Assembly (NCBI GenBank): GCA_041663285.1
Contig: JBAZSP010000002.1
Location: 1 to 59,152 of the forward strand
From: Candidatus Shapirobacteria bacterium
GTDB taxonomy: Bacteria; Patescibacteriota; Microgenomatia; UBA12405
DNA: 59,152 bases
Direction: 5' to 3'
Made by a program: the position numbers and the translations under genes. Positions 23,760-51,385 of the stretch are shown here, piece after piece. The notes under the pieces were generated by a model. The model saw only the letters and a program-made list of their open reading frames with translations. It was not told the origin of the DNA and made no database searches. Numbering within the stretch: the stretch's first letter is position 1; each line of letters begins with the position of its first letter.

Positions 23760-23788
23760 TTGACATCCTCCGCCTAATCCTTTATAAT
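23760..23788 (+). promoter_or_regulatory. Consensus sigma70-type promoter TTGACA-17 nt-TATAAT for rplJL
   Basis: TTGACA at 23760-23765, a 17-nt spacer, and TATAAT at 23783-23788, read directly. Confidence 0.7.
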
Positions 23789-23794
23789 CCCCTA

Positions 23795-23897
23795 ACTTAA
23801 CCGAAGACAGTAAGGGTCCGGCTACAGTCGGACATAAATATCTTACCGAGGGCAAACATAGTAATTTTACGCCCCGTCTCCGGGGCGTTGCTGTTTT
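23795..23897 (+). promoter_or_regulatory. rplJ leader with a terminator-like hairpin (candidate L10-leader attenuator)
   Basis: About 130-nt leader. ACGCCCCG-TCTC-CGGGGCGT (23869-23888) is followed by TGCTGTTTT, about 30 nt before the rplJ ATG. Confidence 0.5.
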
Positions 23898-23928
23898 AAT
23901 AAACCAAAAAATAAATTAAATTTTGTCT

Positions 23929-41830: not shown

Positions 41831-42022
41831 ACCTTGGCGATCTTTACTCTAGAGTGCTTATTCAAAATCTTCTTACCTTATCTTTACCTACTTCTTTATA
41901 ACTTATTACATCTTATTCTCTCATCTCCTTTTACATCTTATATTATTATTTTGTTCTCTATTAATCAATTTTATCCAGTTTATTTCTAATTTTCTTCTCA
42001 TTGCTTTATAATACCAATGTCA

Positions 42023-42036
42023 TCGGAGACTGGCGC
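42023..42036 (+). repeat. 14-nt copy of the tRNA-Pro 5' end (TCGGAGACTGGCGC)
   Basis: Identical to 42148-42161. The two copies bracket a 111-nt GC-rich segment. Confidence 0.8.
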
Positions 42037-42148
42037 CCGCCTGCAAAAGCTGTCGCTTTGGCGACTGCGGGCAGGCAATTTCAGCCACAGGCTGATGGGC
42101 CTCTGGCCCAGGCTAGTGGCCAGCTTTCCACTTGTTTTTGCTCTTTTT

Positions 42149-42222
42149 CGGAGACTGGCGCAATTGGCTAGCGCGCAGCTTTCGGGTAGCTGAGGTTGCG
42201 GGTTCAAATCCCGCGTCTCCGA
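42149..42222 (+). tRNA. tRNA-Pro (anticodon CGG)
   Basis: Hand-folded cloverleaf: acceptor CGGAGAC/GTCTCCG, D arm GCGC-AATTGGCTA-GCGC, anticodon arm CAGCT-TTCGGGT-AGCTG, variable AGGTT, T arm GCGGG-TTCAAAT-CCCGC, discriminator A. No encoded CCA. Confidence 0.85.
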
Positions 42223-42229
42223 CTGTGGT

Positions 42230-42263
42230 CCGCCGTAGTCCTGAGCCTGTCGAAGGACGAAGG
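42230..42263 (+). repeat. 34-nt dispersed repeat (copy 2)
   Basis: See 39842-39875. It starts 8 nt after tRNA-Pro. Confidence 0.85.
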
Positions 42264-42355
42264 AGACCTTTTGTTCGCCATGTTTTTAGACGAAAGCGAT
42301 CTTTTTACTTTCGTTTAAATTTTGATTTTTGATCTTTTATATTTGACTTCTTAAA

Positions 42356-42427
42356 GTCCTCATAGTTCAATGGATAGAACAGCCCCCCCCTAAGGGGCAG
42401 ATGGAAGTCCGATTCTTCCTGGGGATA
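42356..42427 (+). tRNA. tRNA-like gene, formally tRNA-Arg (anticodon CCT), with non-canonical C33 and C55
   Basis: Hand fold: acceptor GTCCTCA/TGGGGAT (two G-U pairs), D arm GTTC-AATGGATA-GAAC, anticodon arm GCCCC-CCCCTAA-GGGGC, 4-nt variable loop, T arm GGAAG-TCCGATT-CTTCC, discriminator A. Confidence 0.45.
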
Positions 42428-42988
42428 CTTCTTGTCCAATCCTTATTCCGCTACCCACTAAAAGATTTTTTGCCTCTAAAGTTTCAATTTTAATCTCCCG
42501 ATTTCCTTTCCGTCCTTTCTCCGCTCTTTACGGCTTCATTCTTTGCCTTCTCCGCATTCATATTTTCCTACTCCGTATTATTACCGCTTTCATCTAGCTT
42601 ATTCCCCTTCCCTATTTGTTAGCTTTATACTCCGTATTGCCAAATATATTCTTGCTTACTGTACTATAACATTTAAAGCTTCTATATAACATATAAACCG
42701 CTCTAAACTTTAAAACTCCGCCATTTAAAAGCCCGACAATCGGACTTGAACAACAAAATATCTCGTTATCCCCTGTAATTATTCACCCGCTTCGAGCTTA
42801 ACTCTACAAATATAACATTCTACAACATTTAGAATACTGCTTTTAAGCCTTTACTACTTGCCAGCTGATCCCAAAACACTTTCCTAAATCAAAAATACTC
42901 CCCGCTCCTCTTACCATCTTATTACCATGTTTCCGAAATATTCTCTTATATATATTTATTAGCAAAAAAAACTTTTACTGATAAAGGC

Positions 42989-44218: not shown

Positions 44219-44397
44219 TAAATCATTATATCAGCTCTTTAGGTTAATATTTATACCCACAAAGCAATATCACCTTTCTTACCTACCTTTTAACCATTTC
44301 TTACTATATTAACACTCGCGTATATTGCCTGCTAGATACATATTTATATATTTAACCAGATATATTTTGAACTATTTTCTGGATCCTCTCCACAGCT

Positions 44398-45984
44398 CTA
44401 CGCTAATCTACTCTGCTTAGCTCTGCGATACTCCCTGGATTCTCTATCAGGTTTAATATCATACCCCCTGCTCCCAACCTGTTGAGCTCTTGGCGTTTCT
44501 GATGGTCTAGGTGTTACAGAGGGTCGACGAGTCCATGTCGGCCATGGTGTCCGGGTTATAGTCGGAGTTAAAGTACGCGTCGGTGTCAGCGTCCAGAAGT
44601 TAAACGCCGGATCAATACACTCGCTGCTTCCGTCCATAGCCCCATTAATAAATCTGGTTAACGCATCTTCAAAATTTTGATGAGAAGCCAAAGGCAAATA
44701 ACACCCACCGGTTTCTCTTGCTATTCTCTCTAAATTATCTTCTTGGGGGGAATAGTCACTCTGTGGAAAAGTGTATTGGCACCTCCACATCAAACCAATG
44801 GTGTATATTTTTATCCCTTTATCTCTCGCCAACTGTAACGCTTCGTTCAATAACGCTTCTTGTCTGGTTCGCTCTACTTTATCTGCCCCAGAATACGTTC
44901 CATCCTGATTACTAGGATCTACCATATTTCCGTCATGAGGAAGTATGATTATGCTATTATTGGCGCCTTTTTTAACTGCCATATTTAACCCCTCGGCCAG
45001 ACTACTTTTTCCATCGCCCAAATACGGCTGGGCCTGATCATATAATGCCCTTAAGGAACTACCCGCTCCATGATATAGCACGTTGCCCCTTCTCGGAGAT
45101 TCGCCAACTACATAGAGTGCGATTGGTTGACCCCTAAATAACCCCTCATTATCCTTTAATAGGTTAATAAGCCAAAATCCCATTTTATTGTCGTAGTAAC
45201 AACTCGAACTAACCACCCGCCCATCCTTTAAAGTAATTTCTCCACCGGAGTAATGAAGTGACAAAGATCCATCCTGAACCACCGTAATTTTTAACCCAAC
45301 TTGTTCCTGTATAATCGATAAAAATAGCCTATATGCTTCAGGCGTACCGGTTGGCACCACATCCTCAGTTGGCTCCAGTGTTTGTGTTGCCGTCGGAGCT
45401 TCTGTCGGACAAGCAGGGCAATTAGTTGGTGTTTCCTTAGCAGTTGGTTGTACAGCCGGTGTCCTCGTTACGCCCGTTCTTGTTTGTTCAGCTTCTATCG
45501 TTTGATAATAGCGGGTCTTTACCGGGTCAGAAACAGTTGCTGTTCTAGTCGCTGTCGGTATGCAGGTATTTGTTGGAGCCGCTGCTACTTCCTGCTTTGC
45601 TGCCACCGCCATAACCGGCTCTTTTTTATGAGGAAGCGACACTCTTGCTGATAAATTATCTTTGGTTTGGTCAAGATCTCCCCAACTCAAAAATGGATCC
45701 GGCAGATTTATCGCCATTCCATGCCCGGTATTTGCTGTGTCTTCTGCTAAACTTGTCGGAAACTGAACCCCAGACAGCACCCCTACCATCATCATCGTCA
45801 TCACCAACCCCCGGTACTCCCGCGGCATTGCATTTATAACATCCCCCAATGAAGCTTGGCCTAGTTCTAAATTAGGCGCTGCATTTCTCCCACCCATTAC
45901 ATAAGTTAAATCTCTTGATCGAGCTAACGATATTTCAGCTCTTCTTACATCAGAATTACTACCGTATTCAATTTTATTTGCCAT
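44398..45984 (-). CDS. von Willebrand factor A-like domain protein with Thr/Pro-rich linkers
   Basis: One TM segment (MTMMMVGVLSGV), TP-rich tracts, and a C-terminal VWA-like pattern (SIIILPHDGN...KGIKIYTIGL...ETGGCYLPL). Confidence 0.6.
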   Translation of the reverse strand: MANKIEYGSNSDVRRAEISLARSRDLTYVMGGRNAAPNLELGQASLGDVINAMPREYRGLVMTMMMVGVLSGVQFPTSLAEDTANTGHGMAINLPDPFLSWGDLDQTKDNLSARVSLPHKKEPVMAVAAKQEVAAAPTNTCIPTATRTATVSDPVKTRYYQTIEAEQTRTGVTRTPAVQPTAKETPTNCPACPTEAPTATQTLEPTEDVVPTGTPEAYRLFLSIIQEQVGLKITVVQDGSLSLHYSGGEITLKDGRVVSSSCYYDNKMGFWLINLLKDNEGLFRGQPIALYVVGESPRRGNVLYHGAGSSLRALYDQAQPYLGDGKSSLAEGLNMAVKKGANNSIIILPHDGNMVDPSNQDGTYSGADKVERTRQEALLNEALQLARDKGIKIYTIGLMWRCQYTFPQSDYSPQEDNLERIARETGGCYLPLASHQNFEDALTRFINGAMDGSSECIDPAFNFWTLTPTRTLTPTITRTPWPTWTRRPSVTPRPSETPRAQQVGSRGYDIKPDRESREYRRAKQSRLA

Positions 45985-46091
45985 TTTTTATCATTAAATA
46001 TAATGTTTATTATTATTCCTATCTTTTGGTACTAATCTATATGCAAATCTATAATATTTTTTAAACTTTTAACCTAGTTATTTTCTTTGTG

Positions 46092-47348
46092 ACCGACCGT
46101 TTGTGTTGCTCTTTGTTTGTTTTGTTTTTCTCCTTTCTTTGCCGCTTCGCGGCCCCCAGGTCGCCAGGCTTGAAGCCCGGCGACCTGTTTTGTTCGCTCT
46201 GGGGGGCCGCTTCGGCCAAAGTGTAGCTCAGTGCTACCGCTGGGTCGCCGCCATGCGCGCCTTGACTTGCTCGATCTTCTCCTCGCGGGTGAAAGCGGCA
46301 GCGCTCTGGGCCTGGAGCTGATGGGGCCGCCCCTTCTGATAAAACGCTACGTTCACAGCGCGACCTTGGGACCAATCCCACAAAAAGACCTGGTCGCCAT
46401 CCAGCAGCCCGTCCTGGGTGACAAGCACCACGTTGGATACCAACTCAGCCCACCTGACATAGAAGACATAATCCGGGTAGACACTGACCGTGTCGGAGAA
46501 GCTCTCCGTCGGAACGATTTCGAGAATCTCGGGCAAAAAATCGTCCGTCATGTGCGGAGATACGATCTCCAAGTAATTCAGCCTCTCCTTGCCGCTCCAC
46601 ACGGTTTGCCACAAATTCTCTCCGGGCGCCTTCGTAACAAGAGGTTGGACCCAGGTCCCCTCGGGGATGCTCGAGCCAAAATCGGCCGGCTTGTCCCACA
46701 GCGTAAACTCGCTCTCAAAGACCGTGTTGCTGGCAATCCGCAAGCTCTCGACCTCGCCCTGATACTCGAAAATCGCGTTGCTGACCCCGTTGAGCCACAC
46801 ACCACCCTCGTCGCTCGCACCCTCGCCATCGCCTTCGACTATGATATAGGCTTTGGTAACCCAACAGGCCGCACCCTTCAAGGCAACATCGAGCGAGACG
46901 TTCGGGCAGGTGTTCGCCACCATGATGCGCGATCCCTGTCGGCTGATCTCGATACACTCGGCGCCGTAAATCACCGGCGTCGCCGTAGGCTCGGGCGTGG
47001 GCTTCGTCTCCGCCACGATGGGCATGTGGACCTTATAGGTGCCCCCTGCCAACGCCGGCACACAACCCGTAGCCATCAAAATCAGGCCGACCAGCCCTAG
47101 GCCGATCAGTACGCGGATAAGACGCTTCGCTTTCATCGTATTCATCGTAACCTCCATTGTAAGTTGAGAACCACCCGCAGTTTCTCCTCCGAATCTCTCG
47201 CGGCGAGGACAAGATGTCCTCCTTAATCCCCTTCCTTAAGGGATTTTGAAATTTCCGCACGTTCACTTCGAACATCAAGTCCCCTTGATACCCCAAGTGA
47301 ACGTACGGAATAAAAACAAACTTTTAAAGCAAAATTCAAACGGTCGGT
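46092..47348. mobile_element. 1.26-kb GC-rich, skew-free insertion bounded by inverted repeats, carrying one lipoprotein gene and no recognisable transposase/integrase
   Basis: ACCGACCGTTTG (46092-46103) is the exact reverse complement of 47337-47348. The similarity extends imperfectly for ~45 nt (46092-46135 versus 47305-47348). The interior is visibly much more GC-rich than the flanks. Confidence 0.45.
46234..47145 (-). CDS. Lipoprotein of unknown function, foreign codon usage
   Basis: MNTMKAKRLIRVLIGLGLVGLILMATGC is a signal peptide plus lipobox Cys. GGAGG lies 4-5 nt upstream of ATG 47145. G/C-ending codons dominate, unlike every other gene in the window. Confidence 0.7.
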   Translation of the reverse strand: MNTMKAKRLIRVLIGLGLVGLILMATGCVPALAGGTYKVHMPIVAETKPTPEPTATPVIYGAECIEISRQGSRIMVANTCPNVSLDVALKGAACWVTKAYIIVEGDGEGASDEGGVWLNGVSNAIFEYQGEVESLRIASNTVFESEFTLWDKPADFGSSIPEGTWVQPLVTKAPGENLWQTVWSGKERLNYLEIVSPHMTDDFLPEILEIVPTESFSDTVSVYPDYVFYVRWAELVSNVVLVTQDGLLDGDQVFLWDWSQGRAVNVAFYQKGRPHQLQAQSAAAFTREEKIEQVKARMAATQR

Positions 47349-47374
47349 TGTTAAAGTTCTCCTTGCAAAAACTT

Positions 47375-47396
47375 CCAAAGCCGCTTTGGCTTTTTT
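47375..47396. terminator. Hairpin CCAAAG-CCG-CTTTGG followed by C and a T6 run, just outside the right inverted repeat
   Basis: Read directly. An A-rich run on the other side makes it potentially bidirectional. Confidence 0.35.
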
Positions 47397-47730
47397 AGCT
47401 TTTCCAAAGTGACCAGATTATATATTAATTACACACATAAGTCAATATTATAAGTCTTTCTTTGAGCCTGATTCAAAGCTAATTCGTAGCTAATTATTCT
47501 ATTCTGGTTCCAATAATATCCTTTCCTTTTTATCAACCCTGGCTACTCTCCTCTTATACTATATATAAACCATCAACCAGGGCATTTACTCATAAATCAA
47601 TTCTAATTCTTACTTTTCTCCTATATTCCTGTGTTAAGGCTTATTTGACCCGCCTTAACACTCCCGTTCCCTTTCTGCTTGATACCTTTAGCTATACTTT
47701 TCTGTGCTATTTAGGATACCTTTGTGGCCT

Positions 47731-48141
47731 TTACCCCAACCTAAGAATATCCAATATCTCTTCGGCCGACACTAAACTAATCTTCCCTACCCGTTTCAAA
47801 GGCAAAATATGTTTCTTGTCTCCGCTTACCAAATAATCTGCTCTTGCCTCCAAGGCACACTCCACGATTCTATTATCTGCTACTAACTGTTTAATCTTTT
47901 TAAATTCCTTTTTTGGCTCGACTAGCTCAAAATCCTCCAAAAGCAGCCTTTCCACCTTATCCAAAGCTCCTGAACTAAAATCGAACTTCCTTCCCAATAC
48001 CGCTCGAACTTCATAAATAATAAATTTTGAAATGTATCCCCTTAATCCTCCAAGCACCACCTTGTCCATTATTTCTCTTGGCTTTCCGCCAAAAACTATC
48101 GCTGATACAATTATATTTGTATCAAGAACAACTTTTGTCAT
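47731..48141 (-). CDS. PIN-domain toxin (TIGR00305-like)
   Basis: MTKVVLDTNIIVSAIVFGG... start and C-terminal YLVSGDKKHILPL, typical of this PIN subfamily. Confidence 0.75.
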   Translation of the reverse strand: MTKVVLDTNIIVSAIVFGGKPREIMDKVVLGGLRGYISKFIIYEVRAVLGRKFDFSSGALDKVERLLLEDFELVEPKKEFKKIKQLVADNRIVECALEARADYLVSGDKKHILPLKRVGKISLVSAEEILDILRLG

Positions 48142-48144
48142 TAG

Positions 48145-48378
48145 TTAGCTTCGTAAACTGTCTATAGTATCTTCCAAATCATCCTTATTGATTTTAGCCT
48201 TTTTTCCTTTCTTTAAACCATAGGCATAAATACTTTCCCAATCTTGTTTTTTGGCTAAATAACCTCTGACAGCTTCTTGGACTAAGCCGCTGATCGTCCT
48301 GGCTTCAGCTTTCGCCCTTTTCCCCACAGCCTTATATAGAGGGCTGGGAATAGAAATATTTATCGTCTTGCACTCCAT
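48145..48378 (-). CDS. Ribbon-helix-helix (CopG-like) antitoxin
   Basis: KTINISIPSPLYKAVGKRAKAEARTISGLVQEAVRGYL fits a strand-helix-helix pattern. It sits 3 nt upstream of the PIN gene. Confidence 0.65.
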   Translation of the reverse strand: MECKTINISIPSPLYKAVGKRAKAEARTISGLVQEAVRGYLAKKQDWESIYAYGLKKGKKAKINKDDLEDTIDSLRS

Positions 48379-48415
48379 AACCTATTATACAATATTTATA
48401 CAGTTTTTGTATGAC

Positions 48416-51385
48416 TTATCTTACTACCAAATTTATCATTTTCCCCGGCACATAGATTTCTTTTACCACCTGCTTCCCCACCAGCCACTGCTTAATTTTT
48501 TCCAACCCTTTTGCCTCTTCGATTATCTCTTTCCCATTCGTAATTCGTAATTGATTAATTGATAATTGATCTCTAACTTTCCCATTCACGGCCACCGGAA
48601 TCGTTATTTCTTCTTCTACCAGCATAGCCTTCTCTGCCACCGGCCAATCGGCAATATGAACCGATATCGAATCTTTCTCTTCCCTAACCTTACTCCAGAG
48701 TTCCTCCGCCGTATACGGCGCCAGCGGGGCTATTAGCTTGATTAATGTTTTTATATCATCCTTTCGTAATTCGTAATTCGTAATTCGTAATTGATTAATT
48801 GCTTCCATCATCTTGGCAATCGCCGTGTTGTACCCAAACTCTTCAATATCCCTTGTCACCCCATCAATCAATTTATTAATGATTGCCTTGATCTGTATAT
48901 CTTCTTTGCCTCCTTCTTTCGTCATCGCGATCCGCCAGCTGGCGGAGTGGCGATCTCCATCCTTAGATTGCTTCGTCTCTTCGTTCCTCGCAATGACGTC
49001 TAAGATAAATTGATTAAATCTATCCAAGAATCGCTTTACCCCCATCAGTGTTTTTTCGTTCCAAGCCATTGTTCCCGTAAACGGCCCCATAAACATCAAA
49101 TACATTCTGGCCACATCTACTCCGTATTTATCTGCCACTTGATCTGGAACAATTACATTACCTCTCGATTTACTCATCCTTTGGTTATCCGGGCCCAAAA
49201 TTACTCCGTGCGACATCCGCCGGCTGTACGGCTCCGGAGTTGGTACGCAGCCCAAATCATATAAGAATTGGTAAATGAATCTCGAGTACAAAAGATGCAG
49301 TGTGTTATGTTCGTCTCCCCCAATATAGACATCCACCGGCATCCAATACTTCAAAATATCTTCATTAAGAGTGAAAATATTTTGAGAATCTCTAATTTCC
49401 AAATCCGAATCTCTAAACGAATTTGATTTATTTAAATTTTTATCATTTGGATTTTGGACTTGTTTGGAATTTGAAAATTGGAATTTGGAACTTCCGAGGT
49501 TACATAAGTAACCGAGGTAGTACCAATCCGATCCTGCCCAATTAGGCATAGTATCCGTCTCTCTTCGGGCCCCCCCGCCACAAACCGGGCATTTGGCTTT
49601 CACCCAATCTGCCATCATCGACAGTGGTGACTCCCCGGTATCGGTTGGTTCGTAATGCTCGACTTCCGGAAGCACAATAGGCAGCTCCTCCTCCGGCACC
49701 GGGTACCACCCCGGATTTTTCTTTGGCACTTCAATGTCAATATTGTTCTCTTTGGCATATGTTTTAATTCTTTCATTTTGGTCATTTAGATTTTGGTTAT
49801 TGGTTATTGTTTGGTTATTAGAATTTGGAACTTGGTTATTCCCATGATTTTCTGCGCAATTTTTACAGAAAATCATTGGTATTGGTTCTCCCCAATAATG
49901 TTGCCTACTAAATATCCAATCCCGCAAATGATAATTAGCCGTCGGCTCCCCTATTCCTTCTTCTTTTACCCATTTTATGGCAACTTTTATTGCCTCGCTT
50001 GGCACTAACCCATTCCACCTTGGCGAGTTGATTGCTATCACTCCCGTAAGATCAGTGCAAGCTTCATCTTGTTAATTCCAATTACCGGCTTCGCCCGCCG
50101 TAGCTTTAGCGTAGGTGGGCACTATTGGCAATCCAAACTTTTTGGCAAAAGCAAAATCCCGCTCATCATGAGCCGGGACTGCCATAATAGCTCCAGTGCC
50201 GTAAGAGGCCAAGACAAAGTCGGATATCCAAATCGGAATTTCTTTTCCGTTTACCGGGTTAATCGCATATAATCCCGAAAACACCCCCGTCTTTTCCTTA
50301 GCCAACTCCGTCCTTTCCATATCACTTTTCTTTCTGGCATTAGCCACATATTTTTTTATTTCTTCAATTTGGGCATTAATAATTTGAACATTGGAATTTG
50401 TTTGGGATTTGTCAGCCATAAGCTGATCCGCCTTTGGTGGAGAATTTGGGATTTGCTTATTCATGATTTGGTTTACCAAATCATGTTCCGGTGCTATCAC
50501 CATAAATGTCGCCCCGTATAACGTATCCGGCCTGGTAGTAAAAACTTCAATATTAAAATCTGGTGAGTGTCCAATTTTTCGCGCGCAATCATCCGAATCC
50601 GACTTCATGTCCGATAAGAGCGTGCCTGCCCGCCTCTGGCGGGAGCACGATAAAATTGTGGCCGAACCAGATTCCAATTTGAATTTAATTCTGGCTCCCT
50701 CCGACTTCCCTATCCAATTAATCTGCGCCTGCTTGACCTTTTCCACAAAATTAGTCTGTTCTAAACCCTCAAGCAGTCTATCAGCATAGTTTGTTATCTT
50801 TACTACCCATTGTGATATATTCCTTCTTGACACCTCAGCCCCGCACCGTTCGCATTTTCCGTTCACTACTTCTTCGTTAGCCAGTCCTATCTTGCAACTT
50901 GGGCACCAATTAATCGGCATTTCCTGCTTGTAGGCCAAGCCTTTTTTGAATAATTGTATAAAAATCCACTGAGTCCAGCGGTAATAGTCTGGATCAGTCG
51001 TGTTGACCTCTCTTGACCAATCAAACGAAAACGCCAGCCGCTTCATCTGCTCCCTAAACATATCGGTGTTCTGCTTAGTTACCTCCTGCGGTGGCTTTTT
51101 CATCTTTATCGCATAGTTCTCAGTCGGCAGTCCAAAGGCATCCCAACCCATTGGGTAAAGCACGTTAAACCCTCTCATCCGCCAATATCGGGCGTAAACG
51201 TCCCCTCCAGTAAAAGTAAACGCATGGCCAATATGCAATCCGCTGCCGCTTGGATATGGAAACTCTACTAAAATATACTTCTTCGGTTTATTCGAGTAAT
51301 CTTTAGCCGCCGTAGCTTCAGCGTAGGCGGCCCAAAACTTCTGCCAGTTAGATTCAATCTCTTTGAATTTATTTTCTTTTTCCAT
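48416..51385 (-). CDS. leuS: Leucyl-tRNA synthetase, single reading frame interrupted by one TAA (50074-50072) and carrying many repeat-derived insertions
   Basis: The N-part has HIGH (GLHIGHAF), the Zn-binding CPSC...CERCG and the CP1 editing domain (TTRPDTLYGATF). The C-part has LRDWIFSRQHYWGEPIP and KMSKS (RMSKSRGN). Both track ORFs (51385 and 50041) are in the same frame. Confidence 0.9.
48778..48801. repeat. 24-nt block TCGTAATTCGTAATTGATTAATTG inside leuS, also present at 48538-48561
   Basis: Exact duplicate read directly. At 48764-48791 the TCGTAAT unit is repeated four times. Both copies encode INQLRITN. Confidence 0.85.
48965..48998 (-). repeat. REP-like element inside leuS with the same termini as 30847-30887
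   Basis: The reverse complement reads CGTCATTGCGAGGAACGAAGAGACGAAGCAATCT. Next to it is the hairpin TCCGCC-AGCT-GGCGGA (48931-48946). Confidence 0.7.
50094..50119. repeat. REP-like element CCCGCCGTAGCTTTAGCGTAGGTGGG inside leuS, 20 nt from the in-frame stop
   Basis: Related copies lie at 51306-51331 (in leuS) and 52141-52165 (intergenic). It encodes PTYAKATAG. Confidence 0.75.
51306..51331. repeat. REP-like element GCCGCCGTAGCTTCAGCGTAGGCGGC inside the leuS 5' end
   Basis: Encodes AAYAEATAA between the conserved WQKFW and KPKKYIL segments. Confidence 0.75.

Follow-up and report, generated by a model that had tools for sequence, protein, structure and literature searches.

The 59,152-nt stretch analysed here in full (the window; contig JBAZSP010000002.1 of assembly GCA_041663285.1, positions 1 to 59,152) belongs to a Candidatus Shapirobacteria bacterium, and at 46092-47348 it holds a 1257-nt cassette in which a single gene for a predicted lipoprotein of 303 aa (46234-47145, minus strand) lies between the two arms of an exact 12-nt inverted repeat. 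The cassette is the GC maximum of the window: its GC content of 0.566 is about 5 standard deviations above the window mean of 0.438 (sd 0.026), and 0 other 1257-nt stretches match it. GC climbs from approximately 0.2-0.35 in the flanks to 0.5-0.7 between the inverted repeats and reaches 0.593 over the core at 46140-47215. The codon positions of the gene show GC1/GC2/GC3 values of 0.58/0.43/0.76, which is the pattern of a genuine gene from a GC-rich genome, and its GC content at third codon positions (GC3, 0.763) stands apart from the 0.37-0.55 of the 42 other open reading frames (ORFs) in the window. Two long ORFs overlap in the cassette, and because the plus-strand one has its high GC at codon position 1, we regard it as the antisense shadow of the gene at 46234-47145. 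The cassette gene is coding. A preliminary description, made from the letters of the sequence and a list of ORFs, had called the interior GC-rich and compositionally alien and had seen one lipoprotein ORF in it, and both points were borne out, the latter by the matched lipobox pattern and the codon-position profile; its hand count of 46501-46560 (G 17, C 15) was exact. Its term "skew-free" was only partly apt. The bulk GC skew of the cassette is -0.139, so that C still exceeds G, compared with a window mean of -0.31, and a skew this weak is seen in 5% of stretches of equal size; the term comes close to the truth at third codon positions, with a plus-strand skew of -0.10 for the cassette gene against -0.47±0.12 for the host.

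The host background against which this gene stands out is itself strongly marked. On the plus strand of the window there are 16936 C and 8968 G, a ratio of 1.9 to 1, and the third-position skew on this strand averages -0.49 for plus-strand genes and -0.46 for minus-strand genes. Since it is independent of gene direction, the host skew reflects mutational bias tied to the replication strand, not an effect of the coding strand, and the weak skew of the cassette gene therefore indicates that it has not yet been reshaped by the host. A strand asymmetry of this size is unusual for a bacterium. The start sites differ as well. A -10-like hexamer (TATAAT/TAGAAT/TAAAAT-like) ends 4-12 nt before 18 of the 43 starts, compared with 2% of random positions, which implies widespread leaderless mRNAs in this CPR (candidate phyla radiation) lineage, and a GGAGG or AGGAG 5-mer is found upstream of just 5 of 43 ORFs. 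The cassette gene, in contrast to a host that mostly has neither, combines a long structured leader with a canonical Shine-Dalgarno sequence, GGAGG at 47151-47155 on the minus strand, 5 nt upstream of the ATG. RNA folding and a repeat search place three hairpins in the leader (47205-47310, minus strand), namely GAGGACA/TGTCCTC at 47205-47221, AATCCC/GGGATT at 47225-47245 and a 58-nt near-palindrome at 47253-47310 with 27-nt arms that are 81% complementary. The leader is about 200 nt long, has a folding energy of -79.1 kcal/mol, well below that of shuffles (z = -5.8), and matches no Rfam family. On the other side of the gene, 3' of the stop, three GC-rich, terminator-like hairpins at 46143-46216 (minus strand) fold at -62.8 kcal/mol, again with z = -5.8, and have no U-tract on the gene strand. 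The strong Shine-Dalgarno sequence that native genes mostly lack, the hairpin-rich leader and the three hairpins after the stop had all been picked out beforehand, and all of them were recovered.

The borders of the cassette are formed by ACCGACCGTTTG at 46092-46103 on the plus strand, about 40 nt outside the GC rise, and by its exact reverse complement at 47337-47348 on the minus strand, as the preliminary description had stated. At up to one mismatch, this sequence and its reverse complement have two matches only in the 59-kb window, which are these two. The chance of a 12-mer inverted repeat arising between shuffled 101-nt border segments is about 0.002, and what is unusual is the placement of this repeat pair on both compositional borders. 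At 58%, the GC content of the repeat exceeds that of the AT-rich flanks around it, and no intact copy of a palindrome built from ACCGACCGTTTG occurs elsewhere in the window. A 10-nt direct repeat, AAACTTTTAA, was weighed as an alternative border and set aside, because its position does not fit the register of the inverted repeats and a repeat of this kind can readily arise by chance where DNA is AT-rich.

The cassette is part of a lineage-specific insert of 4.2 kb (44219-48415, minus strand) that runs from the M16 peptidase gene to leuS. The gap between these two genes is 4201 nt here and 0-210 nt in 29 of 33 relatives; the inserted DNA is absent from that position in related genomes. Besides the cassette, the insert contains an RHH (CopG-like) antitoxin gene directly after leuS (48145-48378) and a gene for a PIN-domain toxin (47731-48141), which form a pair, both recognised by domain matches, and a gene for p528, a 528-aa orphan membrane protein (44398-45984) for which 5.8 billion protein clusters contain no homologue; all of them lie on the minus strand. 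The RHH-PIN pair has no PADLOC match. For p528, one membrane span is predicted near residues 60-77, together with Thr/Pro-rich linkers, and a degenerate vWA-like stretch (…IIILPHDGN…KIYTIGLM…) was judged by eye. The PIN gene and p528 have native composition, and thus the cassette is a separate, later arrival in the insert. In two related loci, the same junction holds other DNA: two ORFs at 1227-2534 of L036 that by eye resemble an RHH antitoxin and MazG, and a 273-aa ORF of unknown kind at 1236-2202 of L039. Because these two gained unrelated genes there too, the leuS-M16 junction is a recurrent spot for accessory DNA in the clade. The wider neighbourhood is housekeeping in character (LeuRS, M16 peptidase, MreB, MurB, RuvAB, CTP synthase, ribonucleotide reductase and NusG). 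Identity to the nearest LeuRS proteins, which belong to Candidatus Shapirobacteria and other Microgenomates, is 56-58%, and the closest M16 peptidase among the 5.8 billion clusters shares 50-54%. With just 50-58% shared with the nearest relatives in the flanking proteins, the host represents a deep, otherwise unsampled branch; it is an uncultured, deep-branching, Shapirobacteria-like CPR bacterium from groundwater.

A sharp change in composition at a locus with low coverage (3.5-8x) is also what the misjoining of a GC-rich genome fragment into a CPR contig would produce, and chimerism was a concern of the preliminary description, which had advised a check of coverage and continuity. The check effectively excludes it, and we consider an assembly chimera extremely improbable. 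An independent ENA contig of 7041 bp (L001) has identical junctions and the same gene order at 99.96% identity, with 3 base differences, all in leuS. Two public groundwater runs of separate studies, X1 (2022) and X2 (2018), contain both the cassette and its flank, and no other run contains either. Contigs of both runs cross both borders (45762-46616 and 46638-48791 in X1; 45161-46128 and 47288-48790 in X2), and the depth over the cassette is like that of the flanks, at 5-8x in X1 and 3.5-6x in X2. Neither a diverged copy of the cassette nor a separate GC-rich contig carrying it was found in the metagenomes at 80% likeness, and no read-through form with an empty site was seen in the two runs. 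The cassette is contiguous with the host chromosome. It could still be argued that the gene is native and that its odd composition results from selection on amino-acid content or for high expression, because orphan genes are to be expected in an isolated host lineage and the neighbouring p528 is an orphan too. However, the anomaly is strongest at synonymous third positions, in GC3 and skew alike, it reaches into the non-coding terminator and leader, it is missing from p528 and the PIN gene of the same insert, and it is accompanied by a start-site architecture unlike that of the host, so that a native origin is very unlikely. Thus, the view that the cassette DNA is foreign and was recently acquired horizontally, already put forward in the preliminary description, is strongly supported by the outlying GC, GC3 and third-position skew, by the start architecture and by the empty leuS-M16 junction in relatives.

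How the DNA entered is a more delicate question. Our preferred reading, held tentatively and with somewhat less than even confidence, is that a one-gene expression unit (leader, Shine-Dalgarno sequence, ORF and terminator hairpins) was gained horizontally by a route like that of mobile insertion cassettes (MICs) and would now be fixed in the chromosome. MICs are passenger genes between inverted repeats of the insertion-sequence (IS) type that have no transposase of their own and are mobilised in trans (PMC4337579). We favour this route because an exact 12-nt repeat lies on both borders, no transposase lies inside and the arrangement fits the definition of a MIC: inverted repeats surround a passenger gene, and the single ORF between them matches nothing in Pfam, PHROGs or NCBIfam. 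Under this reading, a transposase-less cassette would have entered by transposition, a transposase that it did not itself encode having acted in trans on its 12-bp terminal inverted repeats, and today it would be a single-copy fossil; we put transposition itself at slightly under an even chance. In its short terminal inverted repeats, its passenger gene, its size of about 1-2 kb and its want of a transposase, the cassette resembles MIC231 of Bacillus cereus and the TnXax1-derived MICs of Xanthomonas. Known MICs have repeats in common with an identified IS or transposon, are flanked by target-site duplications and are present in more than one copy or context, whereas the cassette is single-copy, has neither a cognate element nor a clear duplication, and has a repeat of just 12 nt. 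No transposase, integrase or recombinase was found in the cassette or among the main ORFs of the window, as the preliminary description had said of the first two.

Several further observations weigh against transposition. There is no cognate transposase among the main ORFs of the window, and the data searched contain neither a cognate element nor further copies: a search for other copies of the ends, another check that the preliminary description had suggested, drew a blank in the window, across the 1.2 Mb of related loci and in the metagenome runs X1-X4 at 80% likeness. A strict end pattern had 0 matches in the JGI metagenomes; a loose one had at least 119 there and 8 in IMG/VR, which are chance matches, and among the matches listed, none was longer than the pattern and none had a convincing inverted partner. 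The flanks, read by eye, have only TG in common, or TGT if shifted by 1 nt, as chance alone could produce, and this gives no clear target-site duplication. The two arms of the repeat are embedded in AT-rich DNA of host-like character outside the GC-rich core, and the window is rich in exact inverted repeats of at least 12 nt, of which at least 20 pairs have their arms within 3 kb of each other. The imperfect inward extension of the repeat to about 45 nt, which the preliminary description had reported, did not survive: a first shuffle test mixed local compositions and made it look significant, whereas shuffles that keep the local T-richness give p = 0.17. All of this would be equally at home if foreign DNA had entered without a transposon, through uptake and illegitimate or microhomology recombination, or by insertion into a host palindrome, with the repeat being coincidental or host sequence. 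The evidence from composition and synteny fits such an entry just as well, and where L036 and L039 gained genes of other kinds at this junction, repeats of this sort are not in evidence. On the other hand, such an entry has to contend with the low chance of a 12-mer on both borders, with the higher GC content of the repeat relative to the flanks and with the absence of another intact palindrome of this kind from the window. We hold transposon-independent entry to be about equally likely as the MIC-like route, and give it, too, rather less than an even chance. The proposal of a passenger cassette or non-autonomous element in the preliminary description is accordingly upheld as to the border repeat (P about 0.002) and left without the clear duplication, second copy or cognate transposase that would complete it. 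Nothing demonstrates that the cassette is able to move; the border repeats hint at cassette entry. The same repeats enclose the gene completely, with a promoter-like site a short way beyond them at 47445-47417, which brings to mind an inverton in which the repeats serve as recombination sites that flip the gene relative to an outside promoter. This is very improbable, because the two assemblies and two runs show a single orientation without strand-switching joints (these are contigs, from which rare variants could escape), no invertase or recombinase was found among the main ORFs of the window, and the foreign composition would be left unexplained.

Other known classes of elements were compared with the cassette, and all but the small gene islet were rejected. 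Phage morons and small gene islets are likewise self-contained transcription units of deviant composition that are inserted between otherwise adjacent genes. Morons have no bounding inverted repeats, however, and the cassette lies outside any prophage, in a housekeeping chromosomal neighbourhood with no phage genes nearby and no matches to PHROGs or other phage sequences. An integron gene cassette, too, would hold one ORF of roughly 1 kb and, beside it, an imperfect palindromic element, but here the palindrome is 5' of the ORF, its cores (AGTGAAC/GTTCACT, in 47253-47310) depart from the attC consensus and are not RYYYAAC/GTTRRRY, and there is no array, nor any integrase among the main ORFs of the window. 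As a rule, miniature inverted-repeat transposable elements (MITEs) stay below 300-500 bp, encode nothing and occur in many copies. The cassette shares with them a non-autonomous nature, terminal inverted repeats and an intergenic position, but its size of 1257 bp, its 303-aa gene and its single copy rule out a MITE. A tRNA-linked genomic island was discarded as well, since the nearest tRNA genes, tRNA-Pro(CGG) and tRNA-Arg(CCT) at 42149-42428 on the plus strand, are 3.7 kb away beyond two genes, and there is no integrase. The inverton was dropped for its one orientation and missing recombinase, as set out above.

The product of the cassette gene is predicted to be a lipoprotein. The N-terminus of the 303-aa protein, MNTMKAKRLIRVLIGLGLVGLILMATGC, matches the lipobox pattern {DERK}(6)-[LIVMFWSTAG](2)-[LIVMFYSTAGCQ]-[AGS]-C, which we take to be that of PROSITE PS51257. 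The protein begins with MNTMKAKRLIRVLIGLGLVGLILMATG followed by the lipobox Cys. The predicted signal peptide comprises residues 1-27, with K5 and K7 as its basic start and the lipobox MATG ahead of Cys28, and is followed by the Pro/Thr-rich linker ETKPTPEPTATP. In its basic N-terminus, hydrophobic core, M-A-T-G-C motif with Cys28 and Pro/Thr-rich tether, the protein is thus like bacterial lipoproteins of the PS51257 type; unlike them, it has a mature domain that matches no known family, and the lipoprotein assignment is a prediction. The mature part of about 276 aa is acidic, with an isoelectric point of 4.6. The product would be a secreted acidic protein of this length with an N-terminal lipid anchor that holds it on the outer side of the cell membrane. 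Lipidation of Cys28 would depend on Lgt and LspA of the host, and if these are missing, an uncleaved signal peptide might serve as the anchor instead. We infer that the gene is expressed, and two observations weigh against this functional reading: no other ORF of the 59-kb window matches the lipobox pattern, and no promoter of the cassette gene was identified with confidence.

Searches of the BLASTP and HMM type, which the preliminary description had recommended for the 303-aa protein, returned no homologue. The protein had 0 matches in Pfam, PHROGs, NCBIfam, PADLOC and the PDB sequences, a word-indexed search of 5.8 billion protein clusters matched it to itself alone, and an exhaustive HMMER search of 1.84 billion representatives gave, beyond the protein itself, only two spurious matches, P0002 and P0003. 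The match to P0002 consists of a short "WDKP(A/V)EYQS" stretch within its repeat units, and neither protein is accepted as a homologue. There is no paralogue within the window, and neither distant blastn nor tblastn against plasmids and phages detected relatives of the cassette. AlphaFold2 without an alignment gave a pLDDT of 37, and this prediction is unusable. A possible resemblance of "HMPIV…PTPEPTATP" to N-terminal motifs in secreted proteins of Chloroflexota carries no weight in this assessment. The donor would be an organism of roughly 58-60% GC, and the searches found no homologue at either the protein or the DNA level.

Two candidate promoters could drive the gene. The one outside the cassette, TTGACT-17-TATAAT at 47445-47417 (minus strand), was found by a consensus scan in the native flank, about 70 nt from the border. 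Transcripts from it would pass a terminator-like hairpin at 47393-47375 (minus strand), also in native DNA and 3' of the promoter-like site, and then the structured leader. The other is TACAAT at 47156-47161 (minus strand), a -10-like hexamer that ends 10 nt upstream of the ATG. Its spacing matches the short-leader arrangement of the host, so that it is a candidate host-style promoter, and it would bypass the foreign leader. The native DNA next to the cassette is of some interest by itself: on the minus strand, 47375-47476 contains two strong promoter-like sites, TTGAAT-18-TATAAT as well as TTGACT-17-TATAAT, and within about 25 nt of them a bidirectional terminator-like hairpin, AAAGCCGCTTTGGCTTT. 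The unit may represent the promoter that once served p528 and is now cut off from it by the cassette, or else an attenuator or a very small RNA.

Some features of the surrounding sequence deserve mention. The leuS gene (48416-51385, minus strand) is split in the window by an in-frame TAA (third base 50072), whereas L001 reads TAC (Tyr) and has a continuous gene; the difference is either strain variation or a sequence error. In-frame repeats occur within leuS, namely runs of the heptamer AATTCGT (…LRITNYELR…) at 48536-48561 and 48763-48801, and a palindromic element of about 75 nt (…VIARNEETKQS...RIAMT), also in frame, at 48921-48998. Over the repeat region 48540-49010, the word depth in X1 and X2 is 400-2500x, compared with about 6x nearby, with many loose ends, and because of this depth the leuS repeats are taken to be common to very many genomes of the community. 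Among the related records, many GTDB representative metagenome-assembled genomes (loci L002, L004-L006, L008, L009 and others) have clearly Shapirobacteria-like LeuRS and M16 genes under the record title "uncultured Gammaproteobacteria bacterium" and are seemingly mislabelled. Elsewhere in the window, the skew is lost locally at 42001-42500 because the two plus-strand tRNA genes lie there, and a ribosomal protein L10 leader is found at 23783-23903.

The event described here is ordinary in kind, being the horizontal acquisition of a gene islet that is possibly a fossil mobile insertion cassette, and it is the host that is unusual. The islet is notable chiefly for its sharp contrast with this host. 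As the evidence stands, its general significance is limited because it is single-copy and its cargo is an orphan. It is conceivable, although we regard this as a long shot, that with this cassette a first representative has come to light of an undescribed family: cassettes with no transposase, bounded by inverted repeats, through which CPR bacteria receive genes for surface proteins from organisms of much higher GC content. The donor might then be the host cell of the episymbiont itself. If the donor was indeed the host cell, the parasite would hold a surface lipoprotein derived from its own host. Since the genomes of CPR bacteria are tiny and an attached life on other cells is assumed for them, any surface protein that they newly gain is a candidate for contact with the host. 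Mobile elements of CPR bacteria are poorly known, and should the repeats at the borders turn out to be the ends of a transposon, they would point to a mobilising transposase. The cassette also offers a clean case of a very recent acquisition across lineages, in which GC3, strand skew and the foreign style of the start site are still unblurred. It could thereby help to study how foreign genes become expressed and adapt in the largely leaderless genomes of CPR bacteria.

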